Below are positions 3,725 to 62,856 of a DNA stretch of 64,000 nucleotides, piece by piece (the stretch's first letter is position 1; every line of letters starts with the position of its first letter). A program made the position numbers and the translations under genes. Source of the DNA: a virus; IMG/VR virus record IMGVR_UViG_3300025921_000002, positions 10,997-74,996 of that record; one strand, given 5' to 3'. Below the pieces are notes generated by a model. It had not been told where the DNA came from, searched no databases, and was given only the letters and a program-made list of their open reading frames with translations.

Positions 3725-4105
3725 ATGAAATATACAGACGGAGTTGATTTAAAGGACCTGAAAAACATTTTAGCAGGAATGGGCATTCCATATAGCCCTG
3801 AAAGTTCAGCAATAGCCCAAAAGGCAATTAAAGAACATCCCGATGAAGAAGTAGCAGGCGCTATAATGCGATATACTAACTTATTTGAAACCATACCCGG
3901 AATTAAAAGAGAAATGGAAGAAACAGAAGAACAACTACCCTTTAAAGGAATATGCCTTTCAATGGTATTGGATGCCCGTATGCAGGCACTTGACTTAGCC
4001 AGAGAGTTAAACCAAGAAGGGGTTAACCTAAAAACAGCAGGTCAGGCAGAGATTTTGAGGGATGCAGAACAGATTTTTGGTTGGATGCTTAAAGATTTGC
4101 AGTAA
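3725..4105 (+). CDS. hypothetical protein
   Basis: ORF; start reassigned to ATG 3725 after the leader structure. Confidence 0.7.
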   Translation: MKYTDGVDLKDLKNILAGMGIPYSPESSAIAQKAIKEHPDEEVAGAIMRYTNLFETIPGIKREMEETEEQLPFKGICLSMVLDARMQALDLARELNQEGVNLKTAGQAEILRDAEQIFGWMLKDLQ

Positions 4106-4875
4106 TGGCGCTGATTGTAATTTGCTGTTATGATACCGAAGAAAACGGGCGTTATGAATACACGGATGCAACATTGCGTTCACTTCAAAGAACAGTTGAT
4201 TGGTCGAAACACAGATTGATAGTTGTTGATAATGGAAGTGATGAATCGTGCCGAGGAATAATCTTTAGGGGTGTAACGGCGATTGGAGCGAAATTAATTA
4301 CACTTCCTGAAAATGTTGGAACAAGTAAAGGGCTGAACGAGGGTATGCGTCTAAGAAAAGAACATGAACACGTTTTGAAAGCAGACAACGATGTCGAATG
4401 GCTATATCCTAATTGGCTTGATGAGTTAGAAGAAGCAATTGAGCGAGACCCGACAATTGGAATATTAGGTCTTAAACGCAAAGACCTTATCCAAAACCCA
4501 TATCATGAAAGCGAGCAATACCGAAGTGAATATAGGATGCTGCCACATGAACCGGGTCAGCGCTGGATAACCGTAGAAGCCACGGCAGATATTATGGGTA
4601 CTTGTACTTTATTCAACTATCGATTAATTGACAAAATAGGAGGTAGCGCACAACCGAAATTATACGGCCTTGAAGATTGTCTCTATTGCCTTCGTTCGCA
4701 TTTAGCAGGTTTTTATAATGCTTTCCTTCCTCACATTGAAATAAATCACCTTGACAGGGGAGATAACCCATACGTGCAGGTAAAACAAAGGCAGGCTGGC
4801 GAAGCATGGCCTATCTATCATGAATGGCACAAAGGATATATTGAAGGGACAAGACCATTATACGAAGAAATATGA
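4105..4875 (+). CDS. glycosyltransferase family 2 (GT-A fold)
   Basis: LIVVDNGSDE, ENVGTSKGLNEG, KADNDV (DxD), YGLEDCLYCLR. Confidence 0.85.
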   Translation: MALIVICCYDTEENGRYEYTDATLRSLQRTVDWSKHRLIVVDNGSDESCRGIIFRGVTAIGAKLITLPENVGTSKGLNEGMRLRKEHEHVLKADNDVEWLYPNWLDELEEAIERDPTIGILGLKRKDLIQNPYHESEQYRSEYRMLPHEPGQRWITVEATADIMGTCTLFNYRLIDKIGGSAQPKLYGLEDCLYCLRSHLAGFYNAFLPHIEINHLDRGDNPYVQVKQRQAGEAWPIYHEWHKGYIEGTRPLYEEI

Positions 4876-5477
4876 TTTTAGGAGACAGCGCAGAGTATGA
4901 ATACCTTTCAGAAGCGGTAGCTTTAAGCAAAGATGTTGAGGGGATGTGCATAGAAATTGGTGTCCGGCGCGGTCTTGGTACTAAGACCATTATCGACGCT
5001 GTAAGGCAATATTGCCCACACAAAACCGTGGTTGCCGTAGACCCATACGGTTCAATACCATACGTTGGGCAAGAGCATATCGGTGAAATAAGGCTGGATT
5101 ACGATAATCCTATGAAGTTTGATTGCATGGTTGATTTATGGAATTATGTTCGTGAAAATCCTGTTAATTTCAGGCCGGAATGCCTTACTGATTATGAGTT
5201 TTTTGATAAGTACCATGACGGTGTACCGAAGTACGACATAGATATTGCAATAGAAAAACTGTATAGTATGGCGCATTTGGATGGGCCTCATAATTTTGAA
5301 CACGTAAGTACAGAAATTGAATGGTTTAATCTACGAATGAACGGCGGTTCGGTAATTGTAATTGATGATGTGAGTCCAGAGTATATTGATATTAAGCCAG
5401 TAAATGAACTGCTTGATTTTTTGGGATGGGATTTGGTAAAAGAAGGTAACAAGAAAAATCTTTATGTTAAACGGTAA
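4872..5477 (+). CDS. class I SAM-dependent methyltransferase (TylF/Methyltransf_24-like)
   Basis: IEIGVRRG motif I, AVDPY, HLDGPH, VIDD. Confidence 0.8.
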   Translation: MILGDSAEYEYLSEAVALSKDVEGMCIEIGVRRGLGTKTIIDAVRQYCPHKTVVAVDPYGSIPYVGQEHIGEIRLDYDNPMKFDCMVDLWNYVRENPVNFRPECLTDYEFFDKYHDGVPKYDIDIAIEKLYSMAHLDGPHNFEHVSTEIEWFNLRMNGGSVIVIDDVSPEYIDIKPVNELLDFLGWDLVKEGNKKNLYVKR

Positions 5478-6324
5478 ACAGATAGCCTTTTTAAAAAAAG
5501 CCAAAGAACTAAAAGGATGTGGGGTTTATGAAATTTGGTCACCATCAAATAAGGTTTATATAGGGCAGACGACTAACTTTTTCAAAAGGTTTATGTCTTA
5601 TTTTTCCATGCAATGCAAAGCGCAAAGAAAGTTATATAATTCATTTTTGAAATACGGAGCGGATAAGCATGACTTTAAAATTGTTTTAGTTGAATATACT
5701 TGGCGCTACGATCAAAAAAGACTTGATGAAACCGAGCAGAGATTAATGGATTTTTATAGAAACCACGACTATGAATTATTAAATCTAAGAGAGGCTGGAC
5801 ATAGGGGTAAATTTAGTGAAGATAGCAAGCAGAGGCTTAGTGAAGTAAAAAAAGGTAAAAGATTAGGTGAAGATAACCCCAATTGGGGTAAGGGTTGTTT
5901 TGGTGAGGCTAACGGAATGTTTGGGAAGAACCATTCGGCTAAATCGAGACAAAAAATACTTGATACAAAATTAGAAAGATACGGCGAAGTTTGGGCTAAA
6001 AATGCAGCATTAGCCGAGGAAAAGAGACTTGAATCTATAAAAAACTGGAAGAACAAGGTAAGTAAAAACATGACCGGCTCTAAACCAACGCCACGAAAGG
6101 TTGTCCAGCTTTCCGAATCCGGTGAATATATAAATCTATTTGATAGTATGTATAAAGCTGCTACTGCAATTGAAATACATCCTTCTCATATATCAAAAAG
6201 CGTCCGCAAAAACAAGTTTGCGCCTACAACCCGATTTAGATTTATGTACAAGGAGGTATATGAAGATTTAGTAATAACTAAGTTATTTATTGAAACCGGA
6301 CTAATTCATCATATAGCCCTATGA
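5464..6324 (+). CDS. GIY-YIG homing endonuclease with NUMOD3/NUMOD1-like DNA-binding repeats
   Basis: GVYEIWSPSNKVYIGQT; GEDNPNWGK and GEANGMFGKNHS repeats; VVQLSESGEYINLFDSMYKAA. Confidence 0.85.
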   Translation: MLNGKQIAFLKKAKELKGCGVYEIWSPSNKVYIGQTTNFFKRFMSYFSMQCKAQRKLYNSFLKYGADKHDFKIVLVEYTWRYDQKRLDETEQRLMDFYRNHDYELLNLREAGHRGKFSEDSKQRLSEVKKGKRLGEDNPNWGKGCFGEANGMFGKNHSAKSRQKILDTKLERYGEVWAKNAALAEEKRLESIKNWKNKVSKNMTGSKPTPRKVVQLSESGEYINLFDSMYKAATAIEIHPSHISKSVRKNKFAPTTRFRFMYKEVYEDLVITKLFIETGLIHHIAL

Positions 6325-6980
6325 ACATCAAACTCATAACCGTAACGTCACATCCTGAATTAGCAGAGAACCTAATCAAGTCAGCCACTAAACACGGTTG
6401 GGATTTAGAGGTAATTAAAGTTGATTGGAAAGGATTTGGGACAAAGCTAATCGCCACGTACGAATACTTAAAAGCACATCCAGAAGTTGAGCAGTTTGTT
6501 TTTGCAGATGCTTTCGATGTTGTTGTTTTGGGAACCCCACAAGAGTTTGAAGAAAAAATACCTAATATAAATAAAATTTGGCTATCCACTGAAAAGGGTT
6601 TGTGGCCTCCGATTTTAGAACCGTACAGAAAATTATATGTAAGTCCATTTACGGATTTTAAGTTCGTTAATAGCGGGTGTTACTATTCTCCCTCAAAGCG
6701 ATTCATAGATTTGTTTGATACTTTTGAACCCAAACAAGAAACAGATGACCAGTTTTGGTTTAATTTGGCTTATCTATTTTCAACTTACGGAAAGCATCAG
6801 TATTTTAACTCAATAGGAATAGATGAGAATCAAATGCTATTTAATTCTCACAGCCATATGGCAGAAGGTGAATACGGCTATGAAAATAACAGAGTTCAGA
6901 TACTTGGAAACGAACCGATATTTATTCATTTTAACGGCAAAACAATAGACCTAATATTTAACGAAAGGATAAAGATATGA
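6321..6980 (+). CDS. PLOD/LH3-type glycosyltransferase domain protein (GT-A)
   Basis: FVFADAFDVV, TEKGLWP, FVNSGCY, DDQ and IHFNG motifs resemble the procollagen-lysine hydroxylase N-terminal GT domain. Confidence 0.75.
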   Translation: MNIKLITVTSHPELAENLIKSATKHGWDLEVIKVDWKGFGTKLIATYEYLKAHPEVEQFVFADAFDVVVLGTPQEFEEKIPNINKIWLSTEKGLWPPILEPYRKLYVSPFTDFKFVNSGCYYSPSKRFIDLFDTFEPKQETDDQFWFNLAYLFSTYGKHQYFNSIGIDENQMLFNSHSHMAEGEYGYENNRVQILGNEPIFIHFNGKTIDLIFNERIKI

Positions 6981-7135
6981 AACGTTTTTTAATAAGTTTT
7001 TCTTATGCTCTATTATTCGCAATTTTAGCCGTAATTCTATTTAAAAGATTCGATATGGGTCAATTTTTAATGGGATGGATGTCTTGTGTTGTTTTTTATA
7101 CCGCGTATTCTGTAACTAAAGAGATTTTAGCATGA
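6977..7135 (+). CDS. small membrane protein (52 aa, 2 TM)
   Basis: translated by hand: MKRFLISFSYALLFAILAVILFKRFDMGQFLMGWMSCVVFYTAYSVTKEILA; ATGA overlaps on both sides. Confidence 0.6.
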   Translation: MKRFLISFSYALLFAILAVILFKRFDMGQFLMGWMSCVVFYTAYSVTKEILA

Positions 7136-7830
7136 ACCTACAACAATTGAAAGACGAATGGGCTAATGTGCCGGAGTTTCATAAAGCTATCCATGAAAGT
7201 TTCTGCGACTTTGTTAACGCTGACGAAAAGTTAAAGCGGCATCGTGATTGGGTAGAAACTAATATGTGGGGTTTTGGAGAACGTAGTTTTTGGTGGTTGT
7301 GGAAAATAATCTGTGATGAACTGCCTGAACATGCCGATGTATTGGAAGTAGGAGTTTTTAGAGCCGCGACACTATCCGTAATTGGTATGCTACGCTCTGA
7401 TATATCCTTAACAGGTGTTACGCCATTAAACACAGCCGGAGACGTTTGGGAAAGCGACTATAGGGCAGACATAGACAAGATTTTTGACCTGTTCAACAAA
7501 GTAAGACCAACAATCATTCAAGGATATAGCCAAGAGGAAAGGGTTATTGAAATGGCGAGGCTACTTTCGCCTTATGATGTAGTTTATCTGGATGGAGATC
7601 ATAGCTTTGATGGAACTTTAGCCGACTTTAACAACTACGCACCAATGGTAAAGGTAGGTGGCTACTTGGTCGTAGACGACTGCAACAACGATTTAAATTT
7701 CCCACCACAGGGTTTTTTCACAGGTATCCAAACGGTCACAGATGCTAAGTTAAAGTGGCTTGAAACACAAACGGACTTTGAATTTACCGCAAGTTGTGTT
7801 CACATTTCAATATTTAGGAGGATAAAATGA
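7132..7830 (+). CDS. class I SAM-dependent methyltransferase (Methyltransf_24-like)
   Basis: VLEVGVFRA, YDVVYLDGDHSFDG, VKVGGYLVVDD. Confidence 0.85.
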   Translation: MNLQQLKDEWANVPEFHKAIHESFCDFVNADEKLKRHRDWVETNMWGFGERSFWWLWKIICDELPEHADVLEVGVFRAATLSVIGMLRSDISLTGVTPLNTAGDVWESDYRADIDKIFDLFNKVRPTIIQGYSQEERVIEMARLLSPYDVVYLDGDHSFDGTLADFNNYAPMVKVGGYLVVDDCNNDLNFPPQGFFTGIQTVTDAKLKWLETQTDFEFTASCVHISIFRRIK

Positions 7831-8099
7831 TAAAGCTAATTTTATTATGGCTCGTAGCTGGATTGCTAATGTCCATATTCAGTTGTAAGAAACAGAATGC
7901 TTGCGAGGTTGGCGACACCTGCTTGGTCAAGAAGCATATTTTCAATGATGGCGCTTATCAGCCACATTCATCATTAAAGGCTTTAAAAATCAACAAAAAA
8001 TATACCGAGTTGTGGGGTAAGACCTATTTAGATTGTTCTGATAGCCGGGACACCATTTGGAATTTTCCGCAGGAAGATTTATACAAAGTTGGAGAATGA
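7827..8099 (+). CDS. putative lipoprotein
   Basis: hydrophobic N-terminus ending IFSC followed by KKQ (SPII lipobox). Confidence 0.6.
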   Translation: MIKLILLWLVAGLLMSIFSCKKQNACEVGDTCLVKKHIFNDGAYQPHSSLKALKINKKYTELWGKTYLDCSDSRDTIWNFPQEDLYKVGE

Positions 8100-40112: not shown

Positions 40113-40385
40113 TTATTTTGTTACTACTTTTACCATAGCCCCGCCTGCATCAATGGTTTCGGCTAATTTGTTGTCTTTATATAGCAGGTAGGTATTGCCG
40201 TTTTTTACGTATTTATCGCAGTAGTGGATGTAGCCTATGATGCCCATATAAAACGTCAACTCATATTTTCTATCCTTATTATTAATAACTTTTGACTGAT
40301 TGCAGGAGTTTAAACATAGTGCAAAATAATAATAACTGCGACTGCACACGTTGCCCATAATTGCCAAACTTTTGTAAACGGGCAA
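40113..40385 (-). CDS. hypothetical protein (possible lipoprotein)
   Basis: ORF; ALCLNSC lipobox-like segment; start uncertain. Confidence 0.4.
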   Translation of the reverse strand: MPVYKSLAIMGNVCSRSYYYFALCLNSCNQSKVINNKDRKYELTFYMGIIGYIHYCDKYVKNGNTYLLYKDNKLAETIDAGGAMVKVVTK

Positions 40386-40441
40386 CCGACCATTAGCAAA
40401 TAACCTTCTTCTTCTATCATTTTGTTTCTACTGATTTAACT

Positions 40442-40777
40442 TTAAATGATTCCATTTCGTCTAACAATTCCGCATAGTTTGTTAACTTCATCGTTTTGGT
40501 TAACCGAATGAGATTTATCAAATTCAGATTCATACAAACCGGGAATATCATAGGTGACGAATTTATTCAAATCCATTTTTAGCCACGAACATATTTTAAA
40601 TAAGGTATCAACCTCGAATGTTTTTTTGGACAGTACCCGCGATAATGTAGGGGTTGATATGCCGATTTCCTTAGAGAAAAACCTAAGCCCTAATTTCTTA
40701 TTATTAGCGTAGTTAGCTAAAAACATCTTATCATTAATGGACTTAATGAAAAACCACTGATTAAATTTCATAATCAA
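40442..40777 (-). CDS. XRE-family HTH protein
   Basis: GLRFFSKEIGISTPTLSRVL...DTLFKICSWL. Confidence 0.75.
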   Translation of the reverse strand: MIMKFNQWFFIKSINDKMFLANYANNKKLGLRFFSKEIGISTPTLSRVLSKKTFEVDTLFKICSWLKMDLNKFVTYDIPGLYESEFDKSHSVNQNDEVNKLCGIVRRNGII

Positions 40778-40851: not shown

Positions 40852-43800
40852 ATGCGTAAATACTTATTACTGCTTCTGTTCCTTTTCCCCCTAATCTGTT
40901 TTGCGCAAGCAATCACACAGCAGGTAAAATCTCCAGCATCAGGTAGTTCAGCGGGTAATTCCTTTTTCCAATGGTACTCCGGCAACTACACTGGCTATCT
41001 TGGTGTTCCTTTCGGTACTAATGCAGTAACCAACAGGGCAACTGACATGAACGGTCTGATATATGTTCAGCTTGCCGACAGTACATTGCAATTCCGCTAC
41101 AATGGCACATGGATACCCATTGGAAGCGGTGGAGGTGCTACAAGTGCTATCTACTTTTCGACCCAATTTGCGGGGTTAGGCACAATAGTTTCGCCCATCA
41201 TTCCGAATGCAGACTCAATATTATTAGCGAACCAAATTACCAAACAGAATGTTTATAGTTATTTCAGAAAAGTAAGAACAGATACCGCCTTTTTTGGTCA
41301 GACAAGCCCCTCCTTAATCACAGGTGGACTACAGGCCGGAGTACTATCCTTACCCACCGCTACAAGCGGAACTAAAGGCGGATTAGGTGTACAGCTACTC
41401 GCTCAACCCACAGGCAACACCTCAATAGGCTACAACTCTATTATTTCAAGCGTTGAAACAGACACTTTAGAGGGCAGAAACTTTACCAACTATATGAATG
41501 CGTTCACTGGCGCAGTCAAGCACAGAGGTACAGGAATAGTAACTAACGCGAGTGATTTTGTAGCCCAAAGCCCCTACATTTCAAGCGGCGGAACAATAGC
41601 TAACCAGTCAGGTATCGTTATACAGCCTCAAAAAATAACAGGGGTAACTAACGGGTATAGTATTTTACAATTAGGTACAACCGATAAGAACATCTTTAAC
41701 GGGCCGATACACGCCTTTAACGTCCCCGTAGATTCATCCCCTGACACAGTTTTAACCCTTGTAAACGGTAAGATTTCAAGAGCAGCTTATATAGGTGGTA
41801 CAAGCGGTAATGCTATCATTTCAGGGCTTGCCATGAGCTTATTCATCAATGGAAGCGGGGATACCTCTATAGTTGTCAGCCCCGGAACATGGCGAATTAA
41901 CAACACCATCTATTCTAAAGCTACTTCATCTTTTTTCCCTATTTTACCAAGACCGATAGCAGGTGAGTTCTTTTACGAAACAGCCTACGCCACTACTTCT
42001 AATACGATTTCTATCATAGCCGGAACATCAAGCCCCACACCAATAGAACCTGCTATACCTGCTAATACCGTTAGGGTAGGTTCGGCTTTAGTGAGCAATA
42101 CGGGGATAGTGATAACTCCGACTACGCAAAGTACAATATACAACAATAACGACAGTTTAACAAGCAATAGAACGGTTTTTTTTAGCAATCATTATTTACA
42201 AATGGGCGATACGCTAAATAATAAAGCTCTATTTATAATCCAACCTATTGGAAATTCAATAGCTATGCTGGATTATAATTTAACCTCCGCAGAAAATGGA
42301 CAAATTGGTATTAGTCAAAATGCATCATCTATTGTTTATCAAGACACTTTGGGCAATAATAGCCAAGCAATAACTACAACGTCATTCTCATCGATAGCGT
42401 CTCAATCTCTGGGGCAGGAATTTTCACTTTCATTAAATGGCGGCGTATCGGTTTCCCATGATGCTATCTTTGCTGATAGCTATAATTTTAGAGGCATTGA
42501 ATATGACCATGCCACCCACTACACTCCTAACGACTATACCCTGTTAAGCAAATACATGGCTGATAGCCTTTATTCAGGTGGTGTTAACATTTACAATTCA
42601 GACGGTACGTTAACCGGGGCAAGAACAGTTTCCGGTGGTGGTAATACCCTTCAATTTAGTTTACCAATAGAAGATTTTTCAGGAACAGAAACTTCAAGTC
42701 TAAATCTTAATGGCACATCCACAAGCTTAATAGCCAGTTATGGTACAGGGGACACTTATAATTTATCCTCAACTATATCGGGAACAAATACCTCATTAGT
42801 TATAAATAGGATAAATTCAGCAAATGTAACTGGCTTTGAAATAAATAACACAGGTACAGGGATTATTGTTAAAGACGAGATAGGGGCTATAGGCCTTGTA
42901 GCTAACACTTCGATTGATACCGCCAATATGACATCCAATCCTAAAGCATACGTTACGAGTGAGTGGGTGGCGGGACGTAGTGTGGGTGCTTTCCTTCCCC
43001 TAACTTTCCCAACAGATCAGCACATAGACGGGGCACATCATTCACTGGTTTTTGAAACATTTACATCCGATAACGTAAATGAAGGAGTTTTAGCCATTGA
43101 TTCAAGTGGATTTTATTTAGGGGCTTATACCTCCGGTAATCAGGTCATTAGAACAGGCCATTATACCGCTACAGGGAGCGGTTTAGATGTTGTTAATGAT
43201 TTAGGCACCGGATTTAAATATAGCAATGCCGCTGACTATGCGACTATAGGTACGACTGATACATTAGGCATGGCCCCTGTTGGATGGGTTCAGCGATACG
43301 TGGCAGCGCATGCAGGAACTGGAACTGTAACCTCTGTATCCGGAACAACCAATAGAATAACCTCTACAGGCGGAGCAACCCCTGTAATTGATATATCTTC
43401 AACATTTGAGGCTCTTTTAGGTAAGGTTGCAAATCCCTTATCTCAATTCGCCTCAACCACATCTGCTCAATTGGCGGGGGTGTTGAGTGATGAAAGCGGA
43501 ACCGGGGTAGTGGCTTATACCACCAATCCGGTATTTACAACACCGAATTTAGGGACGCCATCGGCTGTTACTTTAACTAATGGGATGGGGCTGCCTGCTA
43601 CCGGGCTGACAGGGACGCTTCAAGTTGCTCAATTCCCGGCGCTAACCGGAGATGTTACAACGTCAGCTGGCTCGCTGGCAACAGCTATCGGCGCAGGGAA
43701 AGTAACCAACACGATGCTTGCCGGGAGTATATCCGCTTCAAAATTGGTTGGGACGGATATAACAACGGTCGGCACATTAGCGGCTGGTTCGATACCCTAT

Positions 43801-44655
43801 TCGCTATTGACCGGAACGCCAACAATACCTACCGGAGCCAATCCAACAGCAAGCGCAGGTTTATCGGCGGTAAATGGTTTAGCGGCTACATTTATGCGCA
43901 GCGATGGGGCGCCCGCTATAGATCAAAGCATATCCCCCACATGGACAGGGTTTCATACATGGAGTAAATCCAATATCGGAACGGGAGTTGGAACAGCCTT
44001 AGCTAACGTACTCGGGCTATGGAAAAATCCGACAGCCGCATTGGTCGGAGCAGTTCAAAATTCGCCTTTTAGCGGGTGGGAGGCCCAAGATTGGAATACA
44101 TCTGCCGGAGGTTCATCGCAGGCGGTCGATATTTTGGTGCGCGCAGAAGCTGTGCAGGGAACAAACGCAAGTGCCGATCTGGCATTCTATTTAGCCGTTA
44201 ATGGTGGTAATCCCGCTGCTACTGGCGTTAAGATTGGTGGAACGGGGAGAATCACTGCTCCTGCCTATACGATCAGTAACGCACCATCAACATCTGCATC
44301 TACGTATGATATTTTAACACGCAATACCTCTACTGGAGTGCAAGAGAAAATAACGTCAGCCACACTTTTACCCGCAGCTTCGGTTTCATCCGCCGGAACT
44401 CTAACGCTGGCTCATGGCATTGATTATGTATTTACAGGCACCACAGCAACCTATACATTGCCTGCCATATCGGCAACAACCACTGGCAGGGCATACCAGA
44501 TAACAATAAAAAACAGAGGCAGTGGTTTGTTGACGGTTAACTCGGCAGCGGGTGGTAATGATATTTATACGACATCAGCCGTATCTACTTTTACTATATC
44601 AGCAGGTAGTTCTGCTACGCTAATGCCGGATGGCACATATTTTAACCTTGAGTGA
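40852..44655 (+). CDS. signal-peptide-bearing tail-fibre-like protein, 1267 aa
   Basis: MRKYLLLLLFLFPLICFA|Q; fibre motifs GTVTSVSGTTNRITSTGG, LSQFASTTSAQLAGVLSDE, LTGDVT..IGAGKVTNTMLA; C-terminal YTLP..G..ITIKN domain. Confidence 0.8.
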   Translation: MRKYLLLLLFLFPLICFAQAITQQVKSPASGSSAGNSFFQWYSGNYTGYLGVPFGTNAVTNRATDMNGLIYVQLADSTLQFRYNGTWIPIGSGGGATSAIYFSTQFAGLGTIVSPIIPNADSILLANQITKQNVYSYFRKVRTDTAFFGQTSPSLITGGLQAGVLSLPTATSGTKGGLGVQLLAQPTGNTSIGYNSIISSVETDTLEGRNFTNYMNAFTGAVKHRGTGIVTNASDFVAQSPYISSGGTIANQSGIVIQPQKITGVTNGYSILQLGTTDKNIFNGPIHAFNVPVDSSPDTVLTLVNGKISRAAYIGGTSGNAIISGLAMSLFINGSGDTSIVVSPGTWRINNTIYSKATSSFFPILPRPIAGEFFYETAYATTSNTISIIAGTSSPTPIEPAIPANTVRVGSALVSNTGIVITPTTQSTIYNNNDSLTSNRTVFFSNHYLQMGDTLNNKALFIIQPIGNSIAMLDYNLTSAENGQIGISQNASSIVYQDTLGNNSQAITTTSFSSIASQSLGQEFSLSLNGGVSVSHDAIFADSYNFRGIEYDHATHYTPNDYTLLSKYMADSLYSGGVNIYNSDGTLTGARTVSGGGNTLQFSLPIEDFSGTETSSLNLNGTSTSLIASYGTGDTYNLSSTISGTNTSLVINRINSANVTGFEINNTGTGIIVKDEIGAIGLVANTSIDTANMTSNPKAYVTSEWVAGRSVGAFLPLTFPTDQHIDGAHHSLVFETFTSDNVNEGVLAIDSSGFYLGAYTSGNQVIRTGHYTATGSGLDVVNDLGTGFKYSNAADYATIGTTDTLGMAPVGWVQRYVAAHAGTGTVTSVSGTTNRITSTGGATPVIDISSTFEALLGKVANPLSQFASTTSAQLAGVLSDESGTGVVAYTTNPVFTTPNLGTPSAVTLTNGMGLPATGLTGTLQVAQFPALTGDVTTSAGSLATAIGAGKVTNTMLAGSISASKLVGTDITTVGTLAAGSIPYSLLTGTPTIPTGANPTASAGLSAVNGLAATFMRSDGAPAIDQSISPTWTGFHTWSKSNIGTGVGTALANVLGLWKNPTAALVGAVQNSPFSGWEAQDWNTSAGGSSQAVDILVRAEAVQGTNASADLAFYLAVNGGNPAATGVKIGGTGRITAPAYTISNAPSTSASTYDILTRNTSTGVQEKITSATLLPAASVSSAGTLTLAHGIDYVFTGTTATYTLPAISATTTGRAYQITIKNRGSGLLTVNSAAGGNDIYTTSAVSTFTISAGSSATLMPDGTYFNLE

Positions 44656-44696: not shown

Positions 44697-45146
44697 ATGC
44701 AACCGACCGAACAGGAACTTAAAACAGTCAGGATAACCGCAAGATTATTTTTCTCGGTTAGCGTTATATTTGCTGTCTGCCTTGCATTTGTTTTCGCCAA
44801 GTCAGCAGAATATAATCCAGCCGTAAAATACTTTACGTCGGCGGGGGCTATCAACCAGCCTGTACGGGTTTGGGATGGCATTATAACAGTCACAACTGGC
44901 ACGGCGCAATCGGTTGATATATCAAGTGCCGGATTTACCTCTATCAATTCTGTAGTTGTTACACCAGCTAATAACACAGCATCAACAACATCGATGCCAA
45001 TAGTTTCAATAAAATCGTACACGGCTACCTCGGTCGTTTTTAATACTTTGGTTAGCAACACTGCCGGAATCGGTATTTTGGTAGGGCTTATTGTCCCATC
45101 ATCAACCACTGGAATGCAGGTTCATGTGCACGTAGACGGATGGTAA
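44697..45146 (+). CDS. signal-anchored small beta-domain protein
   Basis: hydrophobic helix (LFFSVSVIFAVCLAFVFA) followed by an S/T/V-rich beta domain. Confidence 0.6.
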   Translation: MQPTEQELKTVRITARLFFSVSVIFAVCLAFVFAKSAEYNPAVKYFTSAGAINQPVRVWDGIITVTTGTAQSVDISSAGFTSINSVVVTPANNTASTTSMPIVSIKSYTATSVVFNTLVSNTAGIGILVGLIVPSSTTGMQVHVHVDGW

Positions 45147-45164: not shown

Positions 45165-45389
45165 ATGGAAACAGCAATTGATTACCTTAAAAGAATATAT
45201 GACGAACAGCCTGACTTATTTGATGCTTTGGCCATAGCTACTATTAAACGTCATATAGGCATTGAGCCCCTAACAGGCGGATGCAATCCCGACAACTGCC
45301 ACGGTACGGTTGGATGCAGCAAATCAACATCACATGGCGCCTGCTCATGTGTCGGAAATGTATGTACATGGGTTCCTGATTTGGGATGA
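45165..45389 (+). CDS. small protein with six-Cys C-terminal peptide after a GG motif
   Basis: ...IEPLTGG-CNPDNCHGTVGCSKSTSHGACSCVGNVCTWVPDLG. Confidence 0.65.
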   Translation: METAIDYLKRIYDEQPDLFDALAIATIKRHIGIEPLTGGCNPDNCHGTVGCSKSTSHGACSCVGNVCTWVPDLG

Positions 45390-45766
45390 AAGCCATTGTA
45401 TTTATAACATGCTGGACTATTTATCTTTTCGGGTTTGGTTTCTATATTTTTGCCGAAGTTTTTACAGATTGGCCTGTTTTTCAGGTTAGGTGCATTTTAT
45501 GGTGTTCTTTAATGGAACTTTTTATCGCTATGGCTGTTTTAGAGAACATACCGAATAGATGGTTAGCCGATACATTTTTATATAAACAGTTTATTCTTAT
45601 TGCGTGGTTTACTTTAATTGTTACAGCAGGATTTGTCATGCTGAACGGGAATGGATTAGTACAAAATCCCTACTTGAATTTAGGGTGTTTTTACTGCGCG
45701 AATTTGTTATTTAGTTTCATTATCTTAAGCACCGGAATTAAAAATGGAATTTTCAAAGAGCATTAG
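45386..45766 (+). CDS. four-TM membrane protein
   Basis: four hydrophobic segments; ATGA-coupled to the Cys-rich gene. Confidence 0.65.
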   Translation: MKAIVFITCWTIYLFGFGFYIFAEVFTDWPVFQVRCILWCSLMELFIAMAVLENIPNRWLADTFLYKQFILIAWFTLIVTAGFVMLNGNGLVQNPYLNLGCFYCANLLFSFIILSTGIKNGIFKEH

Positions 45767-45767
45767 A

Positions 45768-46097
45768 ATGACACAACCCCAAACTTATAATCTCGACTGG
45801 ATGGCCTTAGGGGAATGGGCAATATCAGTAGTCGGCATATTAATCGCTTTTTTCGGGTTTACAAACAAGTGGTTTAAAGATAGGGTTGATGCCCGTGAAA
45901 AATACGCACAACAGCAAAAGCAGGAAAAGCAAGATTTTATTGAAAAGGTAGTTATTGCTACCGTATCTGCAACGCTTAACAGTACCCTCGGTGGCATAAA
46001 AGAAGATATTGCGACCCTATTTAAATATCGTGAAGATGACAGAACCCATAGTGACGGTCAATTCAGGGAATTGATGAAAGAGATAAGAAAGCCGTAA
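45768..46097 (+). CDS. holin-like single-TM coiled-coil protein
   Basis: TM WAISVVGILIAFFGF followed by coiled coil; start probably MTQPQ. Confidence 0.5.
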   Translation: MTQPQTYNLDWMALGEWAISVVGILIAFFGFTNKWFKDRVDAREKYAQQQKQEKQDFIEKVVIATVSATLNSTLGGIKEDIATLFKYREDDRTHSDGQFRELMKEIRKP

Positions 46098-46106
46098 CTT
46101 TGCCGA

Positions 46107-46418
46107 ATGCTTGAAATATTCAAAGAATATGGTTTACCATTAGGGATATTAATTGTACTTGCCTATTGGTATGCTAAAAAAGATAAACAGCACCGCGAGG
46201 AACGTGAAATTTTGGAACGTACCCGAAAGGAAGAACGCGAAACCTTAGAAAAACTTCACCGCGATGAACGGGAAAGTGTGGAGCGGTCACACAAAGAAGA
46301 ACGAGATACTCTTCGTAAGACCGTAGAGGGCATCGCAGATAATTCAAACAAAGCGTTTAACAACTCCACCCAAGCCTTAACAGAGTTATCTACTCTTGTT
46401 AAATCTATGAAGAAATGA
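46107..46418 (+). CDS. holin-like protein (BhlA-like architecture) with 11-aa repeats
   Basis: YGLPLGILIVLAYWY TM; four (H/R)xxER repeats at 11-aa spacing. Confidence 0.5.
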   Translation: MLEIFKEYGLPLGILIVLAYWYAKKDKQHREEREILERTRKEERETLEKLHRDERESVERSHKEERDTLRKTVEGIADNSNKAFNNSTQALTELSTLVKSMKK

Positions 46419-61882: not shown

Positions 61883-62578
61883 TTAGGTCAGGGTTAAAAA
61901 TTCATCAGGCATATATTCAAGCGCGTCAATAAAAATGAATTTACCAATTTGCTTTATTCTTTTTTGTTGGGTATGACCTACGACTTGTAAAATGTCATCC
62001 GAAACGGCATCAGACATTAGGCTTGCTGGTCTTACCCAAATAGGAGTTTGGCATATTTCTTCTCCGTAAGGGTCGTATCTATCACCGGAAGTAAACTCAA
62101 ATTTATACGGTTGGTTAATAAACAATTCGTTTATTTTTTCAGATAGGTTGTCAATATCCCAATCGGATAAATTAGCATCAGCCCATGTTTTAGTAACCCC
62201 TGCATGGGTGAATAAGATAGGTATATGTTCGGTTGCTTCCATGTGAGAAGCTTGTAAAAACCCTTGCTTTAATGCATCGTTAAGCAAATCTCGAATATCA
62301 ATTGCTCGGGCTACTTCAAAACCTGAATACCTAAGTTTAAAATCTCCCATGTAGTGAAAATCATGGTTGCCTATAAGCAAAACAACGGTTTCAGGGTGTA
62401 GCTTTTTGAACTTTATTATTTCTTTAAAGTTTTCTATTTGCTCATCCTGTGTAATATCGTAGTGGGTATCAAAATAGTCACCGATAAATATAATCCGCCC
62501 GTACTGCGAAATATCTTCATTCAAAAGAGTATTCCAACAGGTTCTGCCGTGAATGTCGCCTATGGCTAATACTTTCAT
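61883..62578 (-). CDS. calcineurin-like metallophosphoesterase
   Basis: GDIHG, GDYFD, GNHD, HAG, GHT motifs. Confidence 0.9.
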   Translation of the reverse strand: MKVLAIGDIHGRTCWNTLLNEDISQYGRIIFIGDYFDTHYDITQDEQIENFKEIIKFKKLHPETVVLLIGNHDFHYMGDFKLRYSGFEVARAIDIRDLLNDALKQGFLQASHMEATEHIPILFTHAGVTKTWADANLSDWDIDNLSEKINELFINQPYKFEFTSGDRYDPYGEEICQTPIWVRPASLMSDAVSDDILQVVGHTQQKRIKQIGKFIFIDALEYMPDEFLTLT

Positions 62579-62856
62579 TTCTTTAAAGGTTTTTTAGTTG
62601 TATCAACTTTTGATTGTTCAGCATAGCTTTGGTTAAAAAGAGCCTGTATCTGCCCGATAAAGCCAACAATAGGAACACCTGTACTCATCGGCATTTTAGA
62701 TTTAAGGATGCTGTCACGGCTTGCGTTTGCTGCTGCGTTAACGTAATCCAGTTGGCTTTTCGTGAATTGAATGGTGTACTGCTTTTCAGCTTTCTTTGGT
62801 TCTTGAGCCGAAGCATTTAGGGCAAAGGCAAGTAAAATAAAGGTTAAGTATTTCAT
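62575..62856 (-). CDS. small secreted protein
   Basis: MKYLTFILLAFALNASA|Q signal peptide. Confidence 0.65.
   Translation of the reverse strand: MKYLTFILLAFALNASAQEPKKAEKQYTIQFTKSQLDYVNAAANASRDSILKSKMPMSTGVPIVGFIGQIQALFNQSYAEQSKVDTTKKPLKK

Follow-up and report, generated by a model that had tools for sequence, protein, structure and literature searches.

How a lytic tailed phage comes to encode a tail-fibre-like protein headed by a signal peptide is the question raised by a 64,000-nucleotide stretch of viral DNA (hereafter, the window) from the IMG/VR record IMGVR_UViG_3300025921_000002 (74,996 bp, complete according to CheckV; the window corresponds to its bases 10997-74996; G+C 39.6%). In the textbook scheme the assembly of tailed phages takes place wholly in the cytoplasm and, to our knowledge, no tailed phage has been found to send a structural protein through the Sec system or to borrow the periplasmic glycosylation machinery of its host. 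The protein in question, P0001, carries a leader of the kind cut by signal peptidase I (SPI) and, over two thirds of its mature length, an excess of the motif (sequon) used for O-glycosylation in Bacteroidota. The explanation that best accommodates these features is that the fibre is made as a secretory precursor, undergoes maturation in the periplasm and then becomes part of the virion, a reading on which our confidence is evenly divided. The segments of the gene on which the first part of the argument depends are the following (aa, amino acids; ORF, open reading frame).

40852..44655, plus strand: P0001, leader-bearing, tail-fibre-like putative receptor-binding protein (RBP) of 1267 aa (open ORF and translation; homologues)
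40852..40905, plus strand: signal peptide, aa 1-18, MRKYLLLLLFLFPLICFA, with a predicted SPI cut before Gln19 (n-, h- and c-regions; conservation)
40906..41226, plus strand: conserved mature N-terminal domain, aa 19-125, candidate docking module (common to about 20 homologues)

The N-terminus of P0001 reads MRKYLLLLLFLFPLICFA followed directly by QA, and its organization is that of a Sec leader: the basic residues R2 and K3 precede YLLLLLFLFPLI, the Leu/Phe core spans 12 residues, Pro13 occupies position -6, and the cleavage site C-F-A before Gln places Cys at -3, Ala at -1 and Gln at +1, as expected of an SPI substrate. The original prediction, made from the letters of the window, had described a classic SPI leader with MRK, a Leu core and CFA followed by Gln+1, and this description proved correct to the residue. 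Pro13 and Gln19 are invariant across 19-20 homologues, in which position -1 is G, A or S; the hydrophobicity of the homologous leader cores is kept while their sequence varies, and the residues just past the cut site are strongly conserved. ATG 40852 is the sole ATG, GTG or TTG codon from the upstream stop to codon 19, the next Met being M66, and residues 19-65 are conserved as protein among relatives. Thus, translation does not start behind the hydrophobic segment, which was one of the objections that the original prediction had raised against itself. Taken together, these features identify P0001 as a predicted Sec/SPI precursor of the Bacteroidota Q-rule type, the export of which is very probable. 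The fibre gene may possibly also have a promoter of its own, the Bacteroidota -7 boxes upstream of it agreeing at no more than 7/8 positions.

An uncleaved N-terminus would lead to a different picture, in which the hydrophobic segment serves as a signal anchor and the protein stays tethered to the inner membrane, facing the periplasm, up to the moment of lysis; alternatively, the segment would persist in the virion as a helix that acts on membranes or inserts into the hub. Residues 2-17 are confidently modelled as a helix by AlphaFold2 (AF2), and gp22 of the Bacteroides phage crAss001 retains its residues 1-26, which are present in the virion and dock the protein in the tail hub (PMC10172136). 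However, the -3/-1 rule is obeyed in every homologue, the invariant Pro at -6 and Gln at +1 are marks of Bacteroidota SPI substrates that undergo cleavage and would be needless for an anchor, and it is the core that drifts freely and the stretch just past the cut site that is conserved, all of which makes retention of the leader unlikely. Two other routes were considered and rejected, namely that of lipoproteins processed by signal peptidase II (Ile precedes Cys16, there is no lipobox, and Cys16 is missing from most homologues) and that of cargo of the type IX secretion system (T9SS), no sorting domain of the TIGR04183/TIGR04131 type being present in P0001 or in its upstream partner described below (Pfam E<=0.01, NCBIfam E<=0.1). 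A need for disulfide bonds was likewise rejected as the rationale for export of the fibre, mature P0001 having zero Cys residues, while the partner has 8. Possible reasons for export are a glycan-based stability of the fibre or the advantage of keeping an RBP away from receptor precursors in the cytoplasm.

The window encodes a large terminase (TerL), a portal, virion proteins, a phage lysozyme and holin-like genes. All cultured relatives of the terminase and portal are podophages of Flavobacteriia (22-28% identity), i.e. the Flavobacterium 'elemo' phages, Cellulophaga phages phi18:3, phi13:2 and phi38:1, and Tenacibaculum and Maribacter phages; the matches to phi18:3 extend to the tail genes, and in one protein there is a weak similarity to the crassvirus muzzle domain. 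Since the TerL and portal relatives infect Flavobacteriia, and in the light of the Q-rule leader and of the G+C content, the host is most probably a member of the Bacteroidota.

Whether the leader is an accident of one genome can be judged from the relatives. An exhaustive HMMER search returned 118 relatives of aa 1-820, of which about 18 (870-1480 aa) share aa 1-125 starting from their own residue 1. They begin with MKK..LLFLL..P..FG, cut before Q(A), and continue with QQSKTPSSG.NAGNQYF.WY, Pro13, Gln19 and Asp76 being invariant. In all, about 20 proteins of 609-1920 aa carry the leader and a conserved domain of about 105 residues, their later parts being different, and in one of the lineage a GDSL esterase domain follows directly after the N-terminal domain. 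The longest contigs bearing such proteins measure 68-76 kb, the size of a phage genome. Two narrow pattern scans found no copy of the N-terminal domain in 185,579 bacterial and archaeal species genomes (one each), so that its absence from them is likely. In 50,697 phage records, tblastn with the same domain gave a single match at chance level, and the beta-helix partner gave zero matches; a scan of IMG/VR with the leader-bearing relative P0210 found no match.

The comparison of gene order covers 15 related loci, one from IMG/VR and 14 from metagenomes (L002 and L005-L018), and brings in the genes that precede the fibre gene.

35586..36919, plus strand: three conserved small leaderless genes (87, 155 and 198 aa), with order and sequence kept (32-64% identity) in L002 and L005-L018
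36925..39957, plus strand: upstream partner of 1010 aa, with the leader MRKWLLLFLLLPLKIFA cut before ATW, a right-handed beta-helix and a He_PIG Ig-like domain (Pfam Beta_helix, He_PIG)

The same order is found in 15/15 loci: a giant cargo gene, genes of about 90, 156 and 194 aa, a leader-bearing beta-helix/He_PIG protein (434-1010 aa) and a leader-bearing fibre (609-1920 aa), then sometimes extra small leader-bearing genes, and finally membrane and holin-like genes. The last of the three small genes adjoins or overlaps the first leader-bearing gene and, where the 194-aa gene overlaps it, the module is thereby seen to be part of the late operon. The homologues of the partner (434 or 717 aa) occupy the same position in all related loci and bear leaders of the type ..LLPFYSEA cut before QT... 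As the beta-helix partner, which on domain content would be tailspike- or depolymerase-like, is thus leader-bearing as well, the unit is a two-gene exported module. Furthermore, in two loci the fibre is split into two genes (609 aa and >=585 aa, i.e. the second of at least that length; L005:9968-13553 and L007:9862-11691), each with its own SPI leader and Gln+1, an arrangement that would make little sense if the two pieces were not both bound for one and the same compartment outside the cytoplasm. The leader-bearing module, as read from these sequences, is a property of the lineage and not a chance occurrence.

What may happen to P0001 once exported is suggested by the distribution of its Asp residues.

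40906..43296, plus strand: sequon-rich two thirds of mature P0001, aa 19-815, with 11 D-(S/T)-(A/I/L/V/M/T) sites (counts and shuffles)

The hand counts of the original prediction turned out to be exact: among the 32 Asp residues of aa 1-815, 16 are followed by Ser or Thr and 11 belong to the full D[ST][AILVMT] motif (positions 76, 121, 144, 204, 298, 434, 453, 498, 571, 689 and 803), while none of the 13 Asp residues of aa 816-1267 is part of a D[ST] pair, against 3.5 expected. The enrichment that had been proposed on these counts is borne out by shuffling, with 11 sequons against 3.05 expected in aa 1-815 (p ~1e-4, 20,000 shuffles) and p = 0.0004 for D[ST] alone. For the whole protein there are 11 against 4.96 expected (p = 0.008), which is the conservative figure because the boundary at residue 815 was picked after seeing the data. 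In the phage that encodes P0001, the observed/expected ratio is 0.84 for the 61 proteins that lack a leader and 0.92 for the structural module. Across 26 relatives (22.9 thousand residues) the motif occurs 2.27-fold over shuffles (z 14.5, a value that overstates the evidence because the relatives are not independent), the reversed motif 1.00-fold, and versions beginning with E, N, Q or K 0.69-0.96-fold; D[ST] with a non-permitted residue in the third position is even depleted (0.63). Thus, what is in excess in these sequences is the published Bacteroidota motif (PMC12871550), with no general preference for Asp-Ser/Thr.

In Bacteroidota undecaprenyl phosphate serves as the carrier on which the O-glycan is assembled, its transfer taking place in the periplasm, and the motif is used solely on non-cytoplasmic proteins, on which it is almost fully occupied; engineered motifs also get glycosylated (PMC12871550). 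P0001, as judged from sequence only, resembles the substrates of this system in having a Sec leader, a non-cytoplasmic destination and the motif above chance; it differs in that all known substrates are cellular, phages not being mentioned in that paper. Given export, O-glycosylation of P0001 is predicted to be probable. As a separate observation, one of the related loci encodes a 442-aa protein without an obvious leader that has 12 sequons against 2.1 expected (L018:17788-19116, minus strand); its start may be mis-called or it may be exported by another route. Two further proteins of exported type are found in the window itself, one of 93 aa (62575-62856, minus strand) with an SPI leader and Gln+1 (..ALNASA before QE) and 2 sequons against 0.2 expected, and one of 90 aa (7827-8099, plus strand), lipoprotein-like (..LLMSIFSC), with 1 sequon. 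Directly upstream of the packaging genes (4105-7830, plus strand) lies a leaderless cassette of a GT2 glycosyltransferase, a methyltransferase and a GIY-YIG endonuclease, which also holds a PLOD-type glycosyltransferase and a gene resembling CmcI/rhamnosyl-O-methyltransferase. That this cassette could retailor the lipid-linked glycan put on exported proteins, the fibre included, is pure speculation.

P0001 as a whole has zero matches in Pfam, PHROGs, NCBIfam or, by sequence, the PDB, and its nature is best appreciated from its parts.

41797..42135, plus strand: beta-sandwich, aa 316-428, with the fold of RBP 'shoulder' domains (AF2 predicted local distance difference test (pLDDT) 94-98; VIA-align; BFVD)
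43297..44652, plus strand: C-terminal fibre shaft and tip module, aa 816-1267, without D-S/T (at least 417 homologues)

The N-terminal domain consists of a conserved extended peptide (residues 19-50) and a small beta unit (51-92), in which Asp76 forms part of a D-S-T sequon. Model confidence is low for the extended peptide, whereas the beta unit reaches a pLDDT of 73-86; a run on aa 1-133 stayed at 66, and aa 124-305 does not fold as an AF2 monomer (pLDDT <45). The beta-sandwich that comes next, modelled very confidently over residues 318-425, is most similar to SPP1 gp22 (VIA-align Z 8.5, rmsd 3.4 over 100 residues), followed by the tail fibre of cyanophage A-1(L) (Z 7.3), Mtd (7.2), the RBP of lactococcal phage 1358 (6.9), the HFTV1 fibre (6.8) and, at Z ~5.5, TssK. 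TssK is a type VI secretion system derivative of phage RBP shoulder domains, and the next 11 matches after SPP1 gp22 are all phage fibres, RBPs or TssK; taken singly the Z values are middling, while the list is uniform. BFVD matches of the sandwich are RBPs and minor tail proteins (E ~1e-6).

The C-terminal module (aa 816-1267) substantiates the 'phage fibre repeats' of the original prediction: many of its >=417 homologues, which are at least that number, contain PF13884 (S74, chaperone of endosialidase), tail-collar, collagen or GDSL domains, and in phage records it matches genes annotated as 'tail fiber protein'. Of 115 relatives of this module (P0128-P0242), 52 have leader-like N-termini, with [AGSC]Q at the cleavage position in 47 of the 52; sequon observed/expected ratios are 1.06 in those with a leader versus 0.71 in the leaderless ones, with a spread from 0/8.5 to 17/5.6. 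A few of the leader-like relatives look non-Bacteroidota, with Ala/Val-rich leaders and no Gln. The sequon-free third may be a recent acquisition from a shared pool, or may be bare so that glycans spare receptor binding. On sequence and model, the architecture of P0001 is that of a putative receptor-binding fibre, in which the proximal anchor is conserved and the distal parts can be exchanged.

How these properties could be reconciled with the life of a tailed phage can be outlined in four steps, of which the first is strongly supported, the second probable, and the last two are inferred. The unfolded chain would be exported by the host Sec system and cut by SPI between Ala18 and Gln19, and the new N-terminal Gln would probably be cyclised to pyroglutamate, a modification that is general in Bacteroidota after SPI cleavage. 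Host O-glycosylation would then, in the periplasm, modify some or all of the 11 sites between aa 76 and 803, leaving the distal third bare. The fibre would fold and trimerise in the periplasm beside its beta-helix partner, while the cytoplasm is the site of capsid and tail assembly. Finally, the holin would breach the inner membrane, the compartments would mix, and the mature N-terminus (aa 19-125) would dock the fibre onto the tail, possibly via the 87-, 155- and 198-aa proteins. These three have no family match in library scans and, placed as they are, we infer that they are candidate virion-side adaptors for the exported proteins. By analogy with crAss001 gp22, residues 19-50 may be the docking peptide. 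The genes that follow the fibre module include holin-like ones.

45165..46418, plus strand: small membrane and holin-like genes after the fibre module (hydrophobic N-termini)

Within this group, 45744-46097 has a weak match to a holin PHROG, and its homologue follows the fibre module in L011, L014, L017 and L018.

Several lines of evidence argue that the protein ends in the particle, and we incline to regard P0001, from its sequence, as a virion component: the N-terminus is conserved and the C-terminus variable, the folds are those of RBPs, an enzyme-bearing (GDSL) variant exists, the position of the genes, at the end of the late structural operon, is the same in the 15 loci, and copies were not found in the bacterial genomes scanned. 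Furthermore, scans of the window phage against Pfam, PHROGs and related families recognised no second fibre-like gene. A cultured counterpart is provided by phi18:3 (Pachyviridae, NC_021794.1), like the window phage a podophage of Flavobacteriia (~71 kb) with homologous TerL, portal and tail genes, in which gp085-087 are three consecutive large proteins with SPI leaders and Gln+1, encoded just before membrane and endolysin genes. PHROGs name them virion structural, tail or tail fibre proteins, and they carry a structural/tail annotation by tandem mass spectrometry (MS/MS), the GenBank note reading 'based on experimental MS/MS proteomics'. They have no detectable sequence similarity to P0001 or its partner, they are not enriched in sequons, and the module that they form is separated from the main tail genes; their leaders were not found to be discussed in any publication. 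The first 60-117 residues of gp086 and gp087 (L004:34544-38583), leader included, match PHROGs in which the other members bear the names pectate lyase and tail fibre protein, which indicates that a leader-plus-N-domain module is also shuffled among Cellulophaga phage proteins.

A number of observations weigh against the route through the periplasm to the virion. As regards glycosylation, enrichment is uneven within the lineage (13/4.7, 5/2.3 and 4/2.3 observed/expected, but 5/5.4 in a protein of 1920 aa and 4/6.3 in one of 1830 aa), the beta-helix partner is not enriched (1 sequon versus 2.7 expected), and phi18:3 gp085-087 have 1 versus ~3 expected each; since enrichment is not universal, glycosylation is not obligatory for the route. 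The sequon at Asp76 is retained in 12/18 relatives, Asp76 itself being invariant, and positional conservation is confined to this residue and to the DSL at 571, so that selection, if acting, targets sequon density in certain modules and not fixed sites. Asp76 lies in a beta-turn in the AF2 model, and its conservation may be structural. The Bacteroidota host, in turn, is deduced from phage relatives, the Q-rule and G+C content, and the leader call from rules and conservation. As for the virion, the MS/MS evidence for phi18:3 is a database note that co-purifying envelope proteins could also yield, and BLASTP of P0001 and of the partner against gp085-087 detected no similarity. Structurally solved crAss001 uses leaderless fibres, and we know of no mechanism by which a tailed phage adds periplasmic parts to its particle.

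The most radical consequence of such doubts would be that P0001 is not exported at all, being an ordinary cytoplasmic fibre, like all tailed-phage fibres known to us, with an N-terminus that is leader-like by appearance and an excess of D-S/T-hydrophobic triplets that is a habit of beta-rich domains. The turn position of Asp76, kept even where the sequon is lost, and the relatives without enrichment would agree with this. Such a habit, however, would hardly account for an excess that is specific to the exact three-residue motif and is missing from the leaderless fibre relatives and from the other proteins of the phage (ratios of 0.71 and 0.84, respectively), nor would appearance account for an SPI leader with invariant Gln+1 in ~20 diverged homologues, with leaders also on the partner and on both halves of the split fibres. 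Retention in the cytoplasm is therefore very improbable.

A more serious alternative accepts export and denies the virion. The original prediction had proposed that the fibre is exported, glycosylated by the host and either joins the virion at or after lysis or acts at the surface of the infected cell; with a real leader and a specific sequon excess, export is very likely and glycosylation probable, and the choice between the two fates is the part that sequence does not separate. Fibre and partner could act on the infected cell itself, in its periplasm or envelope, with possible roles in receptor masking or destruction (superinfection exclusion, or preventing progeny from sticking to debris), in loosening of capsule or envelope, or as a released decoy or adhesin, the true receptor-binding element being elsewhere, e.g. 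in the 1295-aa tail protein. Leader and sequons put P0001 outside the cytoplasm, away from virion assembly; the module always adjoins membrane, holin and lysis genes; and the beta-helix of the partner begins directly after its leader, with no recognisable particle-binding domain. In the window, a divergent helix-turn-helix (HTH) gene also splits the fibre gene from the operon.

40113..40777, minus strand: two small ORFs between the leader-bearing genes, including a regulator of the HTH_26/Cro-C1 type (family scans)

This insert is missing at the same junction in L002, L005, L014 and L018, and L009, L010 and L011 have a homing-endonuclease-like gene there. The junction thus looks like an insertion hot spot, because its contents vary from an HTH gene to a homing-endonuclease-like gene to nothing.

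A further argument for action on the cell comes from the mosaic adhesive trimer (MAT) fibres of Bdellovibrio bacteriovorus, which share with P0001 a signal peptide, a conserved beta-rich N-domain of ~130 aa and a variable trimeric fibre, often with S74, and which act on the cell (PMC10769870). They differ from it in being chromosomal in a predatory bacterium and in having no link to the Bacteroidota sequon, whereas P0001 belongs to a complete phage genome and has an N-domain not found in the 185,579 species genomes; the likeness is one of three-part plan. Against a role away from the particle stand the conserved N-terminus and variable C-terminus, the shoulder fold and the enzyme-bearing variants, all typical of virion RBPs, together with the failure to find another fibre-like gene in the phage, the MS/MS annotation of the phi18:3 counterparts, the contiguity or overlap of these genes with structural genes in the relatives, and the lack of a T9SS C-terminal domain or lipobox by which the cell surface could be reached. 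An exported protein with no place in the virion is, on this evidence, possible and rather doubtful.

Known particles offer partial models for a fibre that matures in the periplasm and then joins the virion. The adsorption protein pIII of filamentous phages has a cleavable Sec leader and completes its maturation beyond the cytoplasm, prior to entering the virion. The difference is that particles of Inoviridae assemble at and through the membrane without lysis, while the P0001 phage is lytic, tailed and DNA-packaging; in its case, particles made in the cytoplasm would have to be brought together with fibres waiting in the periplasm. crAss001 (gp22-gp26; PMC10172136), a podophage of Bacteroidota, shares with the window phage its general tail plan (portal, ring/hub, muzzle-like and cargo proteins) and has multi-protein fibre assemblies docked by an N-terminal peptide; in contrast to P0001, gp22-gp26 are leaderless, conventional cytoplasmic fibres.

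One more gene of the module may belong to the same process.

44697..45146, plus strand: 149-aa protein with a membrane/signal segment at ~16-34 and a Ser/Thr/Val-rich, beta-type body (translation)

It has a long charged n-region and no family match in library scans, and relatives have other small leader-bearing genes at its place. From position and sequence it is possibly an exported fibre partner, chaperone or accessory protein.

Full-text literature searches brought to light no account of tailed phages whose tail fibres bear a Sec leader. What sequence comparison adds here is the conservation of gene order throughout the lineage, the split fibres in which both parts have a leader, the leader of the partner, the motif-specific controls and the leader-like N-termini in 52/115 relatives of the fibre module. 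In one paper on diversity-generating retroelements, the absence of signal peptides was taken as support for a phage origin (DGR; PMC6199706). In its widest form, the reading proposed here would have a whole lineage of lytic tailed phages build its particles in two compartments, a glycosylated fibre and its enzyme partner joining when the holin opens the membrane, with the glycan perhaps retailored by the phage's own cassette; this we advance tentatively. With phi18:3 in culture, the question is open to direct test.

It is common practice to take a signal peptide as the mark of a bacterial as opposed to a phage protein, and to drop genes that encode one as 'non-structural' when RBPs are predicted. 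With almost half of the fibre-module relatives leader-like, such exclusion would discard true RBPs in Bacteroidota phages. Likewise, when phages of gut, soil or aquatic Bacteroidota are engineered or expressed, fibres produced in E. coli or in the cytoplasm would be neither processed nor glycosylated. If P0001 is part of the virion, it would reveal a new assembly logic, in which parts of the particle join at lysis, and, if the scheme is true, a new way for phages to equip their adsorption organ with glycans of host type, which would bear on stability, resistance to proteases, recognition, and interactions with the immune system or lectins.

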